Shown here one piece after another: positions 953 through 38,653 of a stretch of 64,000 bases of DNA. The notes under the pieces are model-generated. The model saw nothing but the letters and a program-made list of their open reading frames with translations. It had not been told where the DNA came from and did no database searches. Position numbers and translations under genes: made by a program. The stretch is from Bacteroidota bacterium (GTDB taxonomy: Bacteria > Bacteroidota > Bacteroidia > Bacteroidales > GCA-2748055): assembly GCA_030631845.1 (NCBI GenBank), contig DAOVKJ010000001.1, positions 480 to 64,479 on the forward strand, read 5' to 3'. How positions within the stretch are numbered: the first letter of the stretch is position 1; every line of letters begins with the position of its first letter.

Positions 953-2992
953 ATGAATAGAATTCTGATAATACTATGCATTGCATTCTGGCCCTTCAGC
1001 CATCTCTATGCACAGGATTCAAGGACCGACAGTCTTTTGAATATGGCTGTTGTGGTGACCGATAATGAACTGGCCACCACCTATTATGAACTCTCTCTTT
1101 CGCTGCAGGAAGAGTATCCGGACAGTGCCCTATACTTTGCCAACCGCGCAGAACTGATGCTGCAGAGAAACGATCCTGAATCGCTCCTCCCCTTTTTATA
1201 TAAGAGCAAAGGGCAGATTTACGAGAATAAACTGGTTACCGAACGCAGCCTGCTATACTACAAAAAGGCGTATGATGAGTTTATCAAGCTGGAGGATTAC
1301 ACCGAGATAGGGAGTTGTGCCCTGAAGATGGGAAATCTTTACTATGATATGGCCAATTTCAGTGAAGCCTACTTCTTCTATATGCAGAGCCTGAATGCCT
1401 ATGAAAGGGAGAATGACCAGCTGGGTATCGCAAGAATGGAGAACAACCTGGGGAATGTATCCTATGATATGGGAAGGTTGTCAGATGCTGAGATACACTA
1501 TCAGAATGCATATGGCAGATACAGCAATAACGGACTCGCCATCGAGGCTTGCGGAGCACTGGGAAACATTGGGTTGATCCTCTATGATAAACAGCAGTAC
1601 GATTCGGCCCTTAGCTACTTTCTGGAGGTGATCAGTCAGCTGGATACCGATTCCCTGGGTTCGGTAATGCATCAACAAATTTTATCAGGAGTTTATAACA
1701 ATGCAGCACTGACCTATTGTGATTTGAATGAACGACAGCTGGCTTTAAAATATTATAGAAAGGGACTTGAGCTGGCCATCAGGACAGGTGATCAGTATAC
1801 TGCTGGAACGGTATATGTGAACCTTGGATCGCTTTTTGGGGAGATGAAAAATCAGGACTCTGCGCTTTTCTATCTGCACAGGGCCCTGCGGATCGCCAAG
1901 AACAGGGGATTCCGATCCCTGGAACTTGATGTTTATGATGAGCTGGCCCAACTTCATGCCGGATTGGGTAGTTATGCTTCGGCATTTAACTGGCAACTGC
2001 GTTATGATACGCTATATAAGGCGGTTTTTAACGAGAATCAATCGGACCAGATTTCCAGGCTCAGGGCACGTTACGAGCAGGAGATCAGCGAGCAGGAGAT
2101 CCTTCAGCTTCAGTCAGAGGCGCAGGTCCAGAAAATGCTCAATAAAGTATTTGTTATTTTTATTGTGGTTATTGTGATCCTGGTGATTATTATTGCCATA
2201 AATCTCAGGTCGAAAAAGCGTACCAACCAGATGCTGGCAGAGCGTAACCTGCAGATCTCAAACGCCATACAAAAGCTCAGCGAATCCGAAAACGAACTCC
2301 AGAAACTAAATAAATCCAAAGACAGGATCTTTTCAGTGGTGGCACATGATCTGAGGAACCCGGTGGCTGCAGTAACGGGATTTTCGGAACTTCTTTATGA
2401 TAATTTTGAAGAATTCCCTGTGGATACGCAGAAAGAGTACCTCTTGCAGATTCTTCAGGGAACTCAACGGATACAAAACCTGCTTGAAAATCTCCTGATC
2501 TGGGCAAGATCACAGATGAAAGCGGTAAAGTATGAACCGGAGACCGTAAAGGTGAAAGGCCTGTTGTCTGAGTGTGTCAGGGAGATGAAGGCCAACCTGG
2601 ACCATAAGAAAGTAGATTGCCTGGTGAAGATCGACACCAGTTGTACGGTTTTTGCTGATAAGGCCATGATTCGTACGGTATTTCGAAACCTGATTATCAA
2701 TGCCATCAAGTTCAGTTTTCCGGGGGGGAAAATCAGGCTCACCTCCAAAACATCAAAAGATGGCTGCACGATTTTTGTTTCAGATGAAGGAATCGGAATT
2801 CAGCCTGAAATTCAGGAGAAGCTTTTCACTGCCAATGAAGTGGTCTCCACACCGGGTACAACGGGGGAATCCGGATCGGGGCTGGGGCTGGTGATCTGTA
2901 AGGAATTTCTGGAACGGAACAAGGGTATGATCACAGTTGAGAGTGAACCGGGCAATGGCTCTATATTCATTGTAAGCCTCCCAGCTCTGTAG
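953..2992 (+). CDS. TPR-repeat sensor histidine kinase (signal peptide, TPR array, one TM helix, HisKA, HATPase_c)
   Basis: The H-box is SVVAHDLRNPVAAV. The G-boxes are DEGIGI and GSGLGLVICKEF. A hydrophobic segment VFVIFIVVIVILVIIIAI precedes the kinase core, and the N-terminal half has TPR-like repeats. Confidence 0.9.
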   Translation: MNRILIILCIAFWPFSHLYAQDSRTDSLLNMAVVVTDNELATTYYELSLSLQEEYPDSALYFANRAELMLQRNDPESLLPFLYKSKGQIYENKLVTERSLLYYKKAYDEFIKLEDYTEIGSCALKMGNLYYDMANFSEAYFFYMQSLNAYERENDQLGIARMENNLGNVSYDMGRLSDAEIHYQNAYGRYSNNGLAIEACGALGNIGLILYDKQQYDSALSYFLEVISQLDTDSLGSVMHQQILSGVYNNAALTYCDLNERQLALKYYRKGLELAIRTGDQYTAGTVYVNLGSLFGEMKNQDSALFYLHRALRIAKNRGFRSLELDVYDELAQLHAGLGSYASAFNWQLRYDTLYKAVFNENQSDQISRLRARYEQEISEQEILQLQSEAQVQKMLNKVFVIFIVVIVILVIIIAINLRSKKRTNQMLAERNLQISNAIQKLSESENELQKLNKSKDRIFSVVAHDLRNPVAAVTGFSELLYDNFEEFPVDTQKEYLLQILQGTQRIQNLLENLLIWARSQMKAVKYEPETVKVKGLLSECVREMKANLDHKKVDCLVKIDTSCTVFADKAMIRTVFRNLIINAIKFSFPGGKIRLTSKTSKDGCTIFVSDEGIGIQPEIQEKLFTANEVVSTPGTTGESGSGLGLVICKEFLERNKGMITVESEPGNGSIFIVSLPAL

Positions 2993-9406: not shown

Positions 9407-10270
9407 TTAATCCACAATAACAGAGACACGTTGTATGGAGTAGGCAGCAAAGATCCCCTGGGCCCCGTTGTCGATATTGGATATTACATTGGCGGGTGGA
9501 CCAGAGAAGAGCGGGTAGTTCCCGGCAATCTCCAGTTGAGCCTCTGTCACAAAATTATAGTAGGCCTCTTCAATGCAGTCCATTTCAAGCGTAACAGTAT
9601 CGCCAGCATGAACAGCCTCCCGGGGATTGTCATCACTCAGGAATCCAACGGGCATACCCGGAAAATAACCCGTATCGAACAGATCGTCTGAAATAACACT
9701 GTATTTGGTCAATGAATCGGTTAGGAGATCGTTGTTCTTAATGAGTTTAAATCCAAACCAGTCTCGCTGATCCACTGGGTTATAAGCATACATAAAAACG
9801 GTGTAGCCGGAAACTACCGGCGTTGTGTAATACCTCAGTTCAATGGATTCAAGCTCAGATCCGCCTGGCATGGTGCTTGAGGCATGGTAAATCTCTTCTT
9901 CGCCATCCTGATTCACATCCAACTGGCTGATGTCCAGCACATAAATGGTTCCAGGGACCCCCCTGAATGCATACGATGTTTCATACCAGCCAGGAATTGT
10001 ATCATTTTCAATCAGCTGTATGGTCTCTTCCTCAAAAGTAAGTTCAACCAGGGCATTCCGGACCCTGGGAGAAGGTTTGTTGGAGAAGTAATCGCTTGTT
10101 ACCGAGAGTTGAACATGGTGCCTGACCGAATCTGTTGTGACTGCGCCTTCCACCACCAGCCTCTGGTAGGTGGAATCCAGCTCAATATCTACTCTTTCTG
10201 TACATGCTGTAGCCAAAAGCAGCGCTACAGTCAGGATAAACCACCGGTGATATGTAAATCTAAGCTTCAT
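9407..10270 (-). CDS. DUF4249-like lipoprotein, partner of the upstream TonB-dependent receptor
   Basis: The lipobox is LLLATAC. The start overlaps the receptor stop (TGATG). This size and position are typical of the DUF4249 partner of CarboxypepD_reg-type receptors. Confidence 0.7.
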   Translation of the reverse strand: MKLRFTYHRWFILTVALLLATACTERVDIELDSTYQRLVVEGAVTTDSVRHHVQLSVTSDYFSNKPSPRVRNALVELTFEEETIQLIENDTIPGWYETSYAFRGVPGTIYVLDISQLDVNQDGEEEIYHASSTMPGGSELESIELRYYTTPVVSGYTVFMYAYNPVDQRDWFGFKLIKNNDLLTDSLTKYSVISDDLFDTGYFPGMPVGFLSDDNPREAVHAGDTVTLEMDCIEEAYYNFVTEAQLEIAGNYPLFSGPPANVISNIDNGAQGIFAAYSIQRVSVIVD

Positions 10271-18275: not shown

Positions 18276-19202
18276 TTAATCTTCACCTTCGAAAAGAATG
18301 TCAAGTACGACAGGTTCGTCCTTGGGGAGTCGATCAGCTGCAGGAGGCTTCTTAAAGACAGGATAACTTATCTTGATATCGGGGTAACCCATATGTACCA
18401 GCATGGTTACCACTGAAAAAATTTTTGGTCCCTGGGGAATTAATACGATGGAATATTCGTCACGCAGGGGAAGAATAGTATCAATCAGACTCTGATAAAT
18501 GGCCTGCCCGTTTCTGATTGGATAGGCAACAAGGTTCCTGATGGGTACACTATTGATCAATTTATGGTTATTAACAAAGACCTTCTCAACAAACCGCTTT
18601 TCCACCGGTGGATCTGCATAGAAGAGATAGAGCAGATCAGGATTGATGATTTTATAGATCGATTCAGAAATATTGTTCTCCTGGCCCAGTCCGAGGACCA
18701 GGGCAGTTTTTTTACCATTTGCAGGCTTTATTTCTTCGTGAAGAAACTCGGAGATCTCCTTTACCTTGTGTGAACCAGGCTGACGAACATAGCTGGCCAT
18801 GGTATAAACAATCCGCATGCATACCCTCCCATCTCTATCCTGGTTCTCGTAGAACCATCTGAAAAACTCATAGTACCAGTTGGGAGACATACTGGTACAA
18901 TCAATCAGCACATTGATCTGCTCACCGGTCAGGGTATTTAAGATTGCATCCACATCGGGAACTTCAGATTCAACCCGAAAGATCTCAAATCCCTGCTCCC
19001 CAAAATAGCTGATGTTTTCCAGGTAAGAAAACTCTTTGATACAGTTTCTCTTTTCAAGGGCAATTTTTTTACAGGAGATCCTTTCAAACATCCGGGCCAC
19101 AGTGGTACTACGCGTTTCAAAGCCAACAGTAGTGATAAATATATCAGCCTTAAAATCAGCTATTTGCGATGAATCTATATGTTGAATGGATGAAAGTTCC
19201 AT
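18276..19202 (-). CDS. Hypothetical cytoplasmic protein with two tandem Rossmann-like halves
   Basis: I use the ATG at 19202 (MELSSIQHID...) because the track start at 19337 overlaps the upstream gene by 74 nt. There is no signal peptide or TM helix. No family was recognised. Confidence 0.6.
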   Translation of the reverse strand: MELSSIQHIDSSQIADFKADIFITTVGFETRSTTVARMFERISCKKIALEKRNCIKEFSYLENISYFGEQGFEIFRVESEVPDVDAILNTLTGEQINVLIDCTSMSPNWYYEFFRWFYENQDRDGRVCMRIVYTMASYVRQPGSHKVKEISEFLHEEIKPANGKKTALVLGLGQENNISESIYKIINPDLLYLFYADPPVEKRFVEKVFVNNHKLINSVPIRNLVAYPIRNGQAIYQSLIDTILPLRDEYSIVLIPQGPKIFSVVTMLVHMGYPDIKISYPVFKKPPAADRLPKDEPVVLDILFEGED

Positions 19203-19263
19203 GGAACACTCTTCTAAGTGCCCTAAGATAAAAGGAAAATTGTAAGGGATGATGTTTGTTTGA

Positions 19264-20598
19264 CTAAAGTTTCGGATTTGTTGCAGGAATATCTGTAATT
19301 GGTCCCGGATGCTTGTCATCCATGGTGAACAGATCAAACACCGGCCACTGTTGAACAGTGCCTATGGTGCCAAACATCATACTGGAAACATACCTGTGGA
19401 TCCTGGACTGTTTATAGGTGCTTGTATTGATCATAACTACCCAGTTTATTCCATCATTTTGCCTGACCAGCAATGCTGAAGAACCGCTCAGATATCCGGT
19501 ACGCCACCAGGTGCCATACCTGTCACTTCCCCGCCAGCCGAAAAGGCCTTTCCCTGCAATACTAGGGTCGGACATATTGGCAATGGTTTCGGGGGAAAGA
19601 ATATCTGGTTGTTCATCAAAACCATCAATGGCAGTCATAAATTTCACAAGTTCCGGTGCAGAAGCCACCCAACCTCCGGCCGGACCCAGCAACTCCATAT
19701 CATTGCCGCCATAATAGATGGGTACAACTTCTCCGGACCCATCCATGGCAGAGGTGGTCATTTTACCTGCATTGCTATGGTACCTGACTTCGTTGGGATA
19801 TTTCTCGTGATAATAACTTTTTCCTATATGCATATCATGAATCCCCAGTGGCTTAAGAAGATTCATAACCACATAATCCTGGTAGGGCATCCCGCTTTTT
19901 CTCTCTATGATCTCTCCAAGGATGGCATAGCCCATATTGGAATAGCTGTAACGTGTTCCCGGATTGAAGTTCAATCTGCGCGAAAGCGTGTACTGCAGGA
20001 TATGTTCAAAAGAGGCAGGAGCCGGAACATCCATTTTCCTGGCAATATAGAGCGGATTGAACATGGGATCGCCTGCGTATCTCGACCACCCTGCTGTGTG
20101 GTTTAACAGGTGACGGACCGTTATCTCCTCAATCCTTGGATCTCTGTAGACCCTGAATAGAGAATCGTTCAGAATACCCCTCTCTCCAAACACAGTTTCG
20201 TCCAGATTGAGGTTTCCCTCTTCGTACAATTTCATTACAGCCACAGCCGTGATCAGTTTTGAGACAGATGCAATGCGGAACAGGTGACCGGGTTTAACAT
20301 CCTCCCCGGTTTCACTATTGGCCGTTCCAAATCCTTTTGCATAAACCAGCCGTTCATCTTTGGTAACAGCCAGACTCGCACCCTCAATCTTCCACCGCTT
20401 GATAAATGCATCTACCTGCATATCTATATTCTCTGTTCCCTCATAGTCAGAGTATTGGTTGTCGAGAAGCAGTGAGAAAGGTACCTCTTCATCATTCAGA
20501 AGGGATGGATATCCTTTGTCGGAGAAGGTCATCGCAATTTCTCCAAAAAAGAAGAAAACAAGCAGGGAAATAAAAATCAAAATCTTTTTCACGTACAA
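19264..20598 (-). CDS. Serine hydrolase of the beta-lactamase / PBP4-like family (secreted)
   Basis: The SxxK motif is ASVSKLITA and a YSYSN motif is present. There is an N-terminal signal-like hydrophobic segment. The start codon is TTG. Confidence 0.85.
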   Translation of the reverse strand: MYVKKILIFISLLVFFFFGEIAMTFSDKGYPSLLNDEEVPFSLLLDNQYSDYEGTENIDMQVDAFIKRWKIEGASLAVTKDERLVYAKGFGTANSETGEDVKPGHLFRIASVSKLITAVAVMKLYEEGNLNLDETVFGERGILNDSLFRVYRDPRIEEITVRHLLNHTAGWSRYAGDPMFNPLYIARKMDVPAPASFEHILQYTLSRRLNFNPGTRYSYSNMGYAILGEIIERKSGMPYQDYVVMNLLKPLGIHDMHIGKSYYHEKYPNEVRYHSNAGKMTTSAMDGSGEVVPIYYGGNDMELLGPAGGWVASAPELVKFMTAIDGFDEQPDILSPETIANMSDPSIAGKGLFGWRGSDRYGTWWRTGYLSGSSALLVRQNDGINWVVMINTSTYKQSRIHRYVSSMMFGTIGTVQQWPVFDLFTMDDKHPGPITDIPATNPKL

Positions 20599-20884
20599 TT
20601 AAAATTTGAACAATCATGTTCGTTTATAAGAACAAAGTTATAGTAAAATGAGATTGAATCTGAATTGTTCATTGCTCCAATTTTGGCCTACTCTTATAAA
20701 TCTTGGGATAGTATTGATAAATAGGATGATACAAGCGTTTTGCAAGCAATGCGAAGGGGTATATATATTACAAGTACAATGACTCTTCGCACAAAATATG
20801 GTACTTTCGTAGAGAAATTTGTGATCATTGATAAATCAATCCAAGCAGTTGGTCAAAAGAATTCAGGTGACCCCTGAGGGGGTA

Positions 20885-21310
20885 TAAAACACGAATGGGA
20901 GCCAAATTTGCATCTGGTTCCCATTCCGCTTGTTAGCTACCGTAGTCTCTAATTCGCGCCAAGCTACGGTTATTATGACTCGAAAACGAGGCCGAAGCCT
21001 TGTGATCTCTTTCGCTGCCCGACGAATCGAACAACTTGCACCGCTCTTGTCCATAGACAATGCATAATGCTCAACTGCTTACAACTTCCACCGCGTTTTC
21101 AGGTACTCTACGGTTTCTGTTTCGAATCTCCTTTCATGCCTTTGACAGCAGTCCAGGTATTCCAGTTCACAGTCCGATCCGAAGATCGGGAGAACAGCAT
21201 CAATACCTGATTAGCTGTTCCCGTGACTCATATTCACGCTTCCAGGTTGCCCTGGTAGCTAATGAACTTAATCATTTAAAGAACTGAGTGGCCTTTTATC
21301 GCTCACTTGG
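20885..21310 (-). ncRNA. Unidentified structured RNA candidate (about 430 nt)
   Basis: The core sits in an ORF-free gap (20599..21497). The minus-strand reading gives C(UUCG)G hairpins at 21174..21189 and 20989..21000. It also gives a GCAA (GNRA) hairpin at 21242..21255 and a 7-bp stem pairing 21192..21198 with 21214..21220. A long-range 9-nt complement pairs 21254..21262 with 20933..20941. A promoter lies upstream and a terminal hairpin with a U-rich tail lies downstream. The ends are approximate. Confidence 0.55.
20893..20926 (-). terminator. Terminal hairpin plus U-rich tail of the candidate RNA
   Basis: On the minus strand GAAUGGGAACCA pairs with UGGCUCCCAUUC (12 bp, one G.U pair, 10-nt loop). 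GUGUUUUAUA follows. A second small hairpin, CCCC-UCA-GGGG, lies at 20871..20881. Confidence 0.5.
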
Positions 21311-21316
21311 TAAGAC

Positions 21317-21348
21317 CAAATATATTGGCTTTATCGCATCACACCAAA
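21317..21348 (-). promoter_or_regulatory. Bacteroidota-type promoter (TTTG-N20-TATATTTG) for the candidate RNA
   Basis: On the minus strand TTTG lies at 21348..21345 and TATATTTG at 21324..21317, which matches the -33 TTTG / -7 TAnnTTTG consensus and spacing. This predicts a TSS near 21310. A 9-bp inverted repeat brackets it (21300..21308 and 21352..21360). Confidence 0.5.
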
Positions 21349-21497
21349 AAAAAGTGAGCGAAGAATTGAACATTGAATGAACAGGATTTATTAACAAATA
21401 GTTAATAGGCTGTTAATTTGAAGATCCATTTATTTATATCACAATGTATTACATCTCTCCCTCTTTTTACATACCTGTTAATATCTACGTGGATACT

Positions 21498-22223
21498 CTA
21501 AAATAATTTGCCAGGAGAAAATTGTTCATACGGTTCGATCATACGTGGATCTGATGGGTCAGCGTTGTTGGCAGAGAGACGTGGCGAAACCGTATATGCC
21601 TTTAAATCAGACTCATTAAAAGGCTGAAACAACTGCTTTCTTTTTAAAAGGGAGGGTTCTCCAGAAATCCATTCTCTCTCTCTCTCCTTTTTTAAAATAA
21701 CCGGCATTCTTTTTCTGGTGTTGTGAATTTTCTCCATCAGCGGGTTCGCTTCGGTGGTAATAATGGAGCAACTTCTCGATATTTCACCATCAAGGGGATC
21801 CCTCCAGCTATCACACAGGCCCGCAAATACAAATGGGGCTCCACTTTTTAGAGAGATATACCATGGGATCTTCACTTCGTTAACAAGTTGCCATTCGAAA
21901 AAACCTCCGGCAATAATCAGACAACGTCCCCTGCTCAAAGGTTCTTTGAAAGAGGGCTTTTCATGCAATGTTTCGGACCGGGCGTTGTAAGTACCTTTTC
22001 TGATCCGTTCTGCCTCCTTACGGTCGCGACACCAGGCAGGGATCAATCCCCACTGCATTAACTGAACCCGGGAAGAATCCTCCTGGGCGACCACCGGAAT
22101 AAAGGGATTGCTGAAAGCCCTGTAGAAATAGTCGAAATCAAAATCATACAAAGCTGAGGTATCCACCCTGAATCTCTCCTCTATGGCTCTTCTTGTAAGA
22201 TGTATTTCAATGGTGAAGCACAT
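21498..22223 (-). CDS. SOS response-associated peptidase (SRAP / YedK, DUF159), abasic-site crosslinking protein
   Basis: The N-terminus is MC..., carrying the catalytic Cys2. WGLIPAW and NTRKRMPVIL motifs are present. The protein is 241 aa. Confidence 0.9.
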   Translation of the reverse strand: MCFTIEIHLTRRAIEERFRVDTSALYDFDFDYFYRAFSNPFIPVVAQEDSSRVQLMQWGLIPAWCRDRKEAERIRKGTYNARSETLHEKPSFKEPLSRGRCLIIAGGFFEWQLVNEVKIPWYISLKSGAPFVFAGLCDSWRDPLDGEISRSCSIITTEANPLMEKIHNTRKRMPVILKKEREREWISGEPSLLKRKQLFQPFNESDLKAYTVSPRLSANNADPSDPRMIEPYEQFSPGKLF

Positions 22224-23742: not shown

Positions 23743-23760
23743 ATATTGTAATCACAATAT
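23743..23760. promoter_or_regulatory. Palindromic candidate operator in the divergent repressor/dinB promoter region
   Basis: The perfect 7-bp arms are ATATTGT-aatc-ACAATAT. Direct TGATTATAT repeats flank them. The site is 38 nt upstream of the dinB ATG and 44 nt upstream of the repressor ATG. Confidence 0.5.
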
Positions 23761-38319: not shown

Positions 38320-38321
38320 AA

Positions 38322-38653
38322 AATGCAGTAGTTGTTAAGCCAGGTTCTGTATCCTCCATAAGCAGGATCCCTGTCATTTTTCTGAGCGGCCTACCCCCCG
38401 GCAGAAGCGGGTAGCTTTTATTATACCGGTATACATGGCCTTTCAGCCCGCAGGACAAACAGCTGCAACGGTCACCCGCCACACCGGTGGGCTCTTACCC
38501 CACCTTCTCACCCTTACCCCCGTGAGGAGGCGGTTATTTTCTTCTTTGCACCCATGCCTTCACAGACATCTGTTTTTCAACAGTGCGGCACCCTGAGCTG
38601 CCCGGACTTTCCTCCACAGGCCGAAGCCTGCAGCGACAGGATCAACTACTGCA
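38322..38653 (-). ncRNA. rnpB: RNase P RNA, bacterial type A
   Basis: The minus strand reads GCAGTAGTTG...GGAGGAAAGTCCGGGC...GGTAAGGGTGAGAAGGTGGGGTAAGAGCCCACC...ACAGAACCTGGCTTAACAACTACTGC. The conserved P4 strands are present. P1 pairs 38643..38652 with 38325..38334, followed by a U-rich tail. Confidence 0.95.

Follow-up and report, generated by a model that had tools for sequence, protein, structure and literature searches.

A candidate 426-nt structured RNA beside the SRAP gene of a Bacteroidota bacterium, from a family unmatched in Rfam 15

The locus and its RNA gene

The window, i.e. the whole stretch of 64,000 nucleotides analysed here (contig DAOVKJ010000001.1 of the Bacteroidota bacterium assembly GCA_030631845.1), has a gap at 20599..21497 between the gene of a SRAP protein (21498..22223) and a gene assigned by Pfam to the beta-lactamase fold (19264..20598), called the hydrolase gene below. 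The gap is poor in open reading frames (ORFs), with short ones only, and its minus strand very probably carries a non-coding RNA (ncRNA) that is highly structured and stable and has a gene of its own, with the following extent:

20886..21311, minus strand: ncRNA, 426 nt, from a conserved 5' A (putative transcription start) to the end of a U tract; supported by nhmmer, covariation and folding-energy z-score

The first-pass annotation, made from the letters of the window, had already described a 900-bp gap without a credible ORF and had read its centre as an unannotated minus-strand structured RNA of about 430 nt, with its own Bacteroidota-type promoter and terminator and outside the known RNA families. 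This reading is upheld by conservation and covariation, by the constant position of the -7 box relative to the 5' end, and by the lack of a match in Rfam and ARAGORN; every sequence element listed with it was found at its place on the minus strand. None of the short ORFs overlapping the RNA region has a Pfam match, and the reading frames of two of them survive in just 15 and 16 of 43 homologues, respectively; on these grounds a pseudogene or a small protein was rejected. The centre of the gap is indeed richer in GC than its AT-rich flanks, with 0.44–0.51 against 0.24–0.34. The minimum free energy of the exact RNA has a z-score of -4.5 relative to dinucleotide shuffles; for a slightly longer stretch the z-scores are -4.4 on the minus strand and -3.2 on its opposite strand. 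The RNA occurs once in the window (nhmmer). At locus L002 (GCA_021107475.1), a 132-amino-acid (aa) gene without a Pfam family is called opposite the RNA (1994-2392, minus strand of the locus); this call is almost certainly spurious, a consequence of the RNA being unannotated.

For a first comparison, homologues of the neighbouring SRAP protein were used to retrieve syntenic contigs. In these relatives, identity is about 95% over the intergenic block that runs from ACCAAGUGAGCG to the U tract and 68–77% for the SRAP protein, and the flanks diverge. A SRAP-seeded scan of the GTDB species genomes then gave 80 loci. Based on nhmmer profiles, the full-length RNA is present in 46 syntenic loci of this set, and in five more distant loci both RNA ends are recognisable around a different middle. 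Locus L059 holds a still more divergent copy, in which the closing helix P1 (described below) is fully compensated (CCUGA/UCAGG).

Fold of the 426-nt form

The fold was derived from a structure alignment (A4) of 43 members of the ~425-nt form, using the RNAalifold consensus with one added pseudoknot; pair counts were compared with those obtained after sliding the partners by 1–3 columns and with 500 shuffles. Of all alignment cells in the 127 pairs, 92.2% form pairs, against 30–44% in the slid controls. Double changes are seen in 71 of the 127 pairs, and none of the 500 shuffles reaches the observed values. The fold supported in this way is a multi-branched body of about 23 helices plus the pseudoknot, with the following elements:

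21305..21310, minus strand: 5' strand of P1, CCAAGU; pairs with 20964..20959, 98% paired family-wide, with CG/UA and AU/GC exchanges as double changes
20959..20964, minus strand: 3' strand of P1, GCUUGG; supported by covariation
21294..21304, minus strand: 5' strand of the core internal loop, GAGCGAUAAAA (family consensus GAGNGAUAAAA); columns invariant or nearly so in 49 diverse members
20965..20976, minus strand: 3' strand of the core internal loop, AUAAUAACCGUA (consensus AYAAUAACNGUA); AAU-AAC-GUA invariant in the 49 members
21290..21293, minus strand: 5' strand of P2, GGCC; pairs with 20980..20977, double changes in three of four pairs family-wide
20977..20980, minus strand: 3' strand of P2, (A)GUC; supported by covariation
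21242..21255, minus strand: GNRA hairpin CCAGG-GCAA-CCUGG; helix 6, double changes in four of five pairs
21192..21220, minus strand: hairpin GAACAGC...GCUGUUC, carrying the pseudoknot loop; helix 7, 98% paired, double changes in six of seven pairs
21203..21209, minus strand: pseudoknot loop strand CAGGUAU; helix 8, 100% of cells paired, double changes in three pairs
21100..21106, minus strand: pseudoknot partner GUACCUG; helix 8
21174..21189, minus strand: UUCG hairpin CCGAUC-UUCG-GAUCGG; helices 9/10, compensatory changes
20989..21000, minus strand: UUCG hairpin AGGC-UUCG-GCCU; helix 20, AU/GC exchange in 16 sequences
20927..20958, minus strand: 3' hairpin A, with a CGC...GCG outer stem, a UUAG/CUAA inner stem and a C(UACG)G cap; double changes in eight of ten pairs
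20886..20926, minus strand: long putative terminator hairpin (20926..20893, 15 pairs) followed by GUGUUUU; helix 23, 99.8% paired

The local hairpins named in the first-pass annotation (two UUCG hairpins, the GNRA hairpin, the 7-bp hairpin and the terminal hairpin, i.e. helices 6, 7, 9/10, 20 and 23) are all present, and each covaries among the 43 homologues. Within P2, the pair C21290/A20980 is a mismatch in the window. The hairpin at 20926..20893, predicted to act as the terminator, shows double changes in six of eight pairs across subfamilies. The loop of 3' hairpin A is UUCG in L022 and L024 and UAUG in L045; since its CUACGG loop is replaced by UUCG or UAUG in relatives, it is read as a UNCG-type cap, C(UACG)G. 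A pairing of this CUACGG loop with an upstream CCGUAG was also considered and rejected, as C-to-A changes in CCGUAG go uncompensated and the loop is swapped for UUCG or UAUG. The core internal loop next to P1 might resemble a bulged-G or loop-E-like motif, as far as its letters suggest.

The long-range contacts turned out differently from what had been proposed. The loop of the 7-bp hairpin does form a pseudoknot, as expected; its partner is the segment at 21106..21100 and not AAUACCUG at 21161..21154. The latter is complementary to the loop in the window, yet shows no covariation beyond shuffles (209 of 500 score as high), and its bases sit in the covarying helix 12, in which all six pairs have double changes. 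At L035, the true pseudoknot carries a double compensatory change (CAGGCAA/UUGCCUG). Likewise, a 9-nt closure of the domain by TTAGCTACC and GGTAGCTAA did not hold: the two are complementary in the window, but 382 of 500 shuffles score as high. This complementarity is best put down to chance, the covarying P1 (21310..21305 with 20964..20959) being the helix that closes the domain. A 14-nt direct repeat noted inside the RNA is present as described, with conservation confined to the ~425-nt subfamily.

Promoter and candidate operator

Upstream of the RNA, four elements are recognised:

21391..21405, minus strand: operator-like palindrome TTAAC-N5-GTTAA, about 80–95 nt 5' of the RNA start, kept in all clades
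21367..21383, minus strand: direct repeat TGTTCA-N5-TGTTCA, one helical turn apart, just 5' of the -33 element
21345..21348, minus strand: -33 element TTTG, spaced 20 nt from the -7 box; homologues retain a TTG-like element
21317..21324, minus strand: -7 box TATATTTG, fitting TAnnTTTG

The consensus of the -7 box in Bacteroidota is TAnnTTTG. The first-pass annotation had recognised a promoter of this type from the TTTG and the box at 21324..21317, and the family bears it out: among the matches listed, TAnnTTTG ends 4–5 nt before the conserved 5' A in 118 of 128 loci, and a TGTnnA-N4-6-TGT repeat also lies upstream of the RNA in 118 of these 128.

The palindrome is close to being a private feature of this promoter. 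Within 1.07 Mb of family loci, TTAAC-N3-5-GTTAA occurs 96 times, with 90 occurrences at -140 to -60 of the RNA start and three elsewhere; it accompanies the RNA promoter in 90 of the 128 loci among the matches listed. In the window itself, the exact TTAAC-N5-GTTAA is unique to the RNA promoter, and the sole one-mismatch match overlaps the same site. The palindrome thus looks like a dedicated, candidate operator, and its near confinement to the RNA promoter suggests that the RNA is probably made under specific control.

The hydrolase gene keeps a conserved -7 box of its own (window 20640..20633), 270–400 nt past the RNA terminator. Between that terminator and the hydrolase promoter, two blocks (window 20861-20849 and 20791-20750, minus strand) are kept in all clades, even distant ones. 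One block is TTCTTTTGACCAA; the other is an inverted repeat, TGCGAA-N30-TTCGCA, whose spacer is AT-rich and variable and whose inner sequence pairs inconsistently. This may be a DNA site or a second RNA element. At L021, L031, L037, L038, L041 and other loci, a second TTAAC...GTTAA-like palindrome with an N7-9 spacer lies about 60–100 nt 5' of the hydrolase -7 box, with an unclear match in the window itself; it hints that the RNA and the hydrolase may be co-regulated by one factor. Further away, the divergent intergenic region between the lexA-like gene (HTH, i.e. helix-turn-helix, plus S24) and dinB contains an inverted repeat ATATTGT-N4-ACAATAT (window 23743-23760), a candidate operator of the LexA-like repressor which differs from the palindrome of the RNA promoter. 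An operator shared by the two promoters was rejected, TTAAC-N5-GTTAA being absent from the lexA-like/dinB region and a different repeat standing there.

An RNA family with a small core

To look beyond the syntenic loci, a degenerate pattern of the 3' core (AATAAN{2,3}GTARCYTGRC-N12-CTAYGG) was scanned over metagenomes and viral contigs. The metagenome scan gave at least 120 matching stretches, which are counted below together with the earlier loci; the searches for the larger family were done with nhmmer profiles. The metagenome loci L095–L203 stem from salt-marsh, estuarine, hypersaline and digester samples. At least 165 loci carry the 3' domain and at least 128 carry both ends, with lengths of 215–630 nt. 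Common to the members are a 5' A(C/U)CAAGUGAGNGAUAAAAGG, a 3' G(Y)CAYAAUAACNGUARCUUGGC, the UNCG-capped hairpin and the long terminator, and the region inside P2 varies in both sequence and length. By these features, the 426-nt RNA appears to be the ~425-nt form of a family that is widespread in uncultured Bacteroidales and other Bacteroidota and unmatched in Rfam 15.

The core follows one order: P1, an invariant internal loop of 11x12 nt, P2, the UNCG hairpin and the long terminator, so that the inserts are closed by the core. When 49 diverse members are aligned over the core (A5), pairing reaches 92.4% in P1, P2, the hairpin and the terminator, compared with 26–48% in slid controls, and double changes occur in 19 of the 28 pairs. 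No other unpaired part of the family is as invariant as the strands of the internal loop, GAGNGAUAAAA and AYAAUAACNGUA.

Some members and matches deserve separate mention. L210 (7866-8197) and L211 (6937-7258), both on the minus strand, are members of about 320–335 nt which are convergent with dnaG and have the same promoter module. One of them lies in a 4.09-Mb contig of a metagenome-assembled genome (MAG; GCA_034521425.1) and the other in a second MAG from the sample of L003, which indicates that neighbourhoods differ in co-occurring genomes. L112, L119, L133, L161 and L204 match the pattern without an nhmmer match, and L091 has a weak one (15 bits); these six are either chance matches or very divergent members and were not counted.

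Candidate giant members

In nine contigs, the whole sequence extends from within the 5' core motif ('GATAAAAGG...') to the terminator hairpin or a point just past it. Their lengths are as follows:

L159, 2124 nt; L095, 2237 nt; L183, 2300 nt; L158, 2071 nt; L202, 2088 nt
L131, 1602 nt; L099, 1248 nt; L203, 1215 nt; L144, 1265 nt

On the RNA strand of the nine contigs, no ORF of at least 90 aa was found. The A content of the four largest contigs profiled is 30–47% per 200-nt window, and the giant members are rich in tetraloop hairpins, with CUUCGG occurring ten times against 0.1 expected. L095, L183 and L159 are mutually 60–70% identical (alignment A6), and the structure predicted for them by RNAalifold comprises 571 pairs in 121 helices, with 90.2% paired. 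Double changes are found in 141 pairs, against 15–25 in slid controls and 58+/-6 in shuffles. As judged from their letters, these ORF-free contigs of 1.2–2.3 kb probably belong to the RNA family as its giant members. Three points limit this assignment. The structure was predicted from the same three sequences that were used to test it and the test is circular to that extent; the contigs are without the first ~10 nt, including the 5' strand of P1; and their ends may represent assembled transcripts or, equally, assembly breaks at the conserved core. The contig ends were at one point taken as proof of transcript ends, and this was withdrawn, as sequence that co-occurring strains have in common also causes breaks in assembly graphs.

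Gene neighbourhood and mode of action

In the ~425-nt subfamily, the gene order is dinB - lexA-like - LON-domain gene - SRAP - RNA - hydrolase - hypothetical - E2. A 353-aa protein without a Pfam or NCBIfam match (window 18276-19337, minus strand) is encoded directly 3' of the hydrolase gene in most syntenic loci, and the two genes may form one operon. The position downstream of SRAP, as recorded in the first-pass annotation, thus holds in the lineage of the window. Elsewhere, the orders RNA-hydrolase-SRAP (L048, L132, L142, L172) and RNA-SRAP (L108, L146, L200) occur, and the SRAP ORF of L108 and L146 starts 47–68 nt past the RNA. Further arrangements are SRAP-four redox genes-RNA, RNA-PHP-UvrD, and the RNA convergent with dnaG, a carboxyltransferase or other genes. 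At least 17 loci have a convergent gene on the downstream side (dnaG in six short forms; carboxyltransferase and others). The neighbours were named by eye or by Pfam.

These surroundings had suggested a link to DNA damage, and the RNA might accordingly be an SOS-linked RNA working with the SRAP (YedK/HMCES-type) abasic-site peptidase or with the dinB/dnaE2 cassette. Among the matches listed, SRAP lies within 3.5 kb of the RNA in 24 of 29 pattern-seeded loci of the ~425-nt form and in eight of 19 long forms, and the proximity outlasts rearrangement (SRAP-RNA, RNA-SRAP, RNA-hydrolase-SRAP and SRAP-four genes-RNA). PHP-UvrD, dnaG or an MsrB/thioredoxin/peroxiredoxin cluster adjoins the RNA in other lineages. 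On the other side, SRAP is nearby in none of the nine short forms among the matches listed, and the carriers are all related Bacteroidota, so that much of the linkage could come from inherited synteny. The lexA-like/dinB intergenic region lacks the RNA palindrome, and the RNA promoter lacks the repeat of that region, which is itself only a candidate operator of the local repressor; the naming of neighbours by eye or Pfam limits the comparison as well. A specific SOS-linked partnership is unlikely. The linkage of SRAP and RNA appears real but lineage-limited and may reflect function or inherited synteny, and the nearby genes (SRAP, dinB/dnaE2 and LexA-like here; MsrB/thioredoxin/peroxiredoxin, PHP-UvrD and dnaG elsewhere) give a hint, as before, of a role in stress or DNA damage.

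Alternatively, the RNA could be a cis-acting leader, i.e. a giant riboswitch or attenuator that senses a signal and uses its terminator to control read-through, the target being the hydrolase gene or, in other lineages, SRAP. It ends in an intrinsic terminator, as such a leader would, and the hydrolase gene is co-directional and downstream in 68 of 75 loci of the ~425-nt subfamily; the orders RNA-hydrolase-SRAP and RNA-SRAP, with SRAP as close as in L108 and L146, fit as well. As in T-box and cobalamin leaders, a sensor-like fold closed by P1 is followed by an intrinsic terminator, with a co-directional gene downstream in the window. Unlike in those leaders, many lineages have a convergent or unrelated gene downstream (dnaG in six short forms, carboxyltransferase, sialidase-like and others), and the hydrolase has its own promoter. 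Between P1 and the terminator stands an independent hairpin that covaries, and no conserved terminator/anti-terminator pairing linking the core to the terminator was seen, with no dedicated search for alternative folds made. Moreover, the terminator stem ranks with the best-conserved parts of the RNA, which a riboswitch expression platform would not do. A leader is therefore unlikely; the 17 or more loci with a convergent gene downstream and the separate hydrolase promoter point to a stand-alone, trans-acting RNA instead.

Relation to known RNAs

A search of the whole window against Rfam 15 (4227 families) at the gathering threshold returned only a bacterial class A RNase P RNA, full length, at 38321..38652 (minus strand, 182.8 bits). 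At E<=10, the region 20500..21600 gave only a chance snoRNA match (E=9.1), and at E<=1 nothing relevant was found for 13 divergent members including the 215-nt form. ARAGORN detected neither a tmRNA nor a tRNA in the window. No description of the family was found in a literature search that was keyword-based and could miss one; only known large RNAs and general surveys surfaced. No match of the RNA to phage and plasmid records was obtained with blastn, and the 3'-core pattern matched only two of 2.9 million viral contigs, both at contig ends, which speaks against a phage- or plasmid-borne element. The two viral-collection contigs (IMG/VR) are L088, with a partial ~425-nt-type RNA at 9652-9866 and a 2700-aa ORF upstream, and L089, with a match at 11-45 and no profile match; their viral assignment is doubtful.

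With 426 nt free of long ORFs, a promoter at a fixed distance and a conserved terminator, as read from sequence, and with covarying helices, a pseudoknot, GNRA and UNCG caps and the invariant 11x12 loop as conserved unpaired nucleotides, the RNA would fall in the kind that holds OLE, GOLLD, ROOL and raiA. Stress-related roles have been proposed for OLE (PMC12054373, PMC12265935). Like OLE, the present RNA is large, intricately folded, supported by covariation and predicted to be its own transcription unit. OLE adjoins a membrane-protein gene; here the neighbour in one subfamily is the hydrolase gene, whose product may be anchored in the membrane, to judge from a hydrophobic N-terminal stretch in the translation. 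Unlike OLE, a Bacillota RNA of about 600 nt and fairly constant size, the Bacteroidota family spans 215 nt to probably 2.3 kb, has no Rfam similarity to it, and no conserved partner genes equivalent to oapA/B/C were found. To our knowledge, a dedicated promoter palindrome is not a feature of OLE either.

GOLLD and ROOL form RNA-only assemblies of fixed stoichiometry (homo-oligomers) and are often associated with prophages (PMC12286853). The present RNA shares with them a very large, tetraloop-rich and ornate make-up and its discovery by comparative genomics and metagenomics. It differs in being chromosomal, single-copy in the window and essentially absent from phage, plasmid and viral collections.

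Several known systems also suggest alternative roles. A sponge RNA of the CsrB/RsmZ type would sequester a protein through many copies of a binding motif in a body of variable length. The rsmZ and csrB genes have an upstream palindromic activator site and a strong terminator, and the present RNA is likewise a stand-alone gene with both, whose length varies by species, about ten-fold around a constant frame. Here, k-mer enrichment in the large members returns tetraloop motifs only (CUUCGG, CCUCGG, GCAA) and no repeated single-stranded motif, of the GGA type or otherwise. The body is a compact set of covarying helices with a pseudoknot and not a string of equivalent hairpins, and we know of no CsrA homologue in Bacteroidota; a sponge is thus improbable.

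We give similarly little weight to a ribozyme or a self-assembling RNA-only particle such as ROOL, GOLLD or OLE. In complexity, tetraloop density and the presence of a pseudoknot the RNA is comparable with these large ornate RNAs, of which homo-oligomers are reported (PMC12286853). Its extreme variation in size, however, argues against one fixed cage geometry, the Rfam models of ROOL, GOLLD and OLE do not match, no catalytic motif was recognised, and the phage association is missing in the searches above.

Finally, a divergent housekeeping RNA (tmRNA, 6S, SRP, RNase P), a decayed protein gene or a mobile-element remnant is very improbable: a body-closing helix, an invariant unpaired core with lineage-variable peripheral helices and a long-range pseudoknot do recall RNase P, tmRNA and SRP RNA, and L002 has its opposite-strand gene call, but the size range is far wider, the operator suggests conditional rather than constitutive expression, the ORFs are neither conserved nor matched by Pfam, the RNA is single-copy and syntenic, and the defining motifs are absent. 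Specifically, no tRNA-like acceptor or T-arm ends and no tag frame of a tmRNA were found, with ARAGORN and the Rfam tmRNA models negative; the P4 pseudoknot and the GAGGAAAGUCCGGGC and ACAGAACCCGGCUUA blocks of class A RNase P are not seen in 20500..21600, the RNase P RNA of the window lying elsewhere; and the multi-branched fold is not the ~180-nt rod of 6S RNA with closing stem, central bubble and terminal stem, for which the Rfam models are negative too.

Proposed model

Taken as a whole, the data are explained best, and in our judgement rather probably, by a regulated stand-alone structured RNA of an expandable family. The proposal that it serves as a trans-acting scaffold is more tentative, at somewhat less than even odds. 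Transcription would start from its own promoter (-33 TTTG and -7 TATATTTG) under the upstream module of TTAAC-N5-GTTAA and the TGTTCA repeat, and the transcript would end at the long intrinsic terminator. P1 is predicted to join the 5' end to a segment about 350 nt downstream, followed by the invariant 11x12 loop and P2. Inside P2, there would be a body of about 300 nt with some 17 covarying helices, UUCG and GNRA caps and one long-range pseudoknot; the UNCG-capped hairpin and the terminator hairpin would follow after P1. The RNA would act in trans and not on the neighbouring gene. How it might do so is equally tentative: possibly, a conserved partner, in all probability a protein, docks to the invariant loop together with the 3' hairpins, and the ornate, lineage-variable insert is a scaffold or expansion module. 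A transcription factor on the dedicated palindrome would switch production, making the RNA condition-dependent rather than constitutive.

Some observations weigh against this model. The transcription, the 5' end and the termination of the 426-nt RNA are all read from sequence. Within the ~425-nt subfamily, the RNA and the beta-lactamase-fold gene always point the same way, with the RNA 270–400 nt upstream in the 68 of 75 loci mentioned above, and a local cis effect by read-through may exist there. No gene accompanies the RNA in all lineages among the contexts compared, and no protein or ligand partner was identified among them.

Significance

Large, highly structured bacterial RNAs with unexplained roles are rare, and OLE, GOLLD, ROOL and raiA each opened new RNA biology. 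What is new here is a large family without a match in Rfam 15 or in a keyword literature search, with an expandable body and what appears to be a dedicated promoter operator. The family is abundant in environmental Bacteroidota, in which current MAG annotations leave the locus blank or mis-call a hypothetical protein on the wrong strand, as at L002. It also lends itself to experiments: the invariant core is very small and sharply defined, the size variants from 215 nt upwards are natural minimal constructs, the 426-nt form is pseudoknotted, and the candidate operator gives a handle on the timing of production.

If the members of 1.2–2.3 kb are single RNAs, the known size range of non-ribosomal structured bacterial RNAs would be extended several-fold, and no non-ribosomal structured RNA known in bacteria would exceed the largest of them (2.1–2.3 kb, about 120 helices). 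For the phylum, it is a nearly even call that this family represents a Bacteroidota-wide class of expandable ornate RNAs, with a small invariant core, a dedicated operator and inserts that span about 100 nt to over 2 kb; the class would have a regulated cellular function possibly tied to DNA-damage and oxidative-stress genes.

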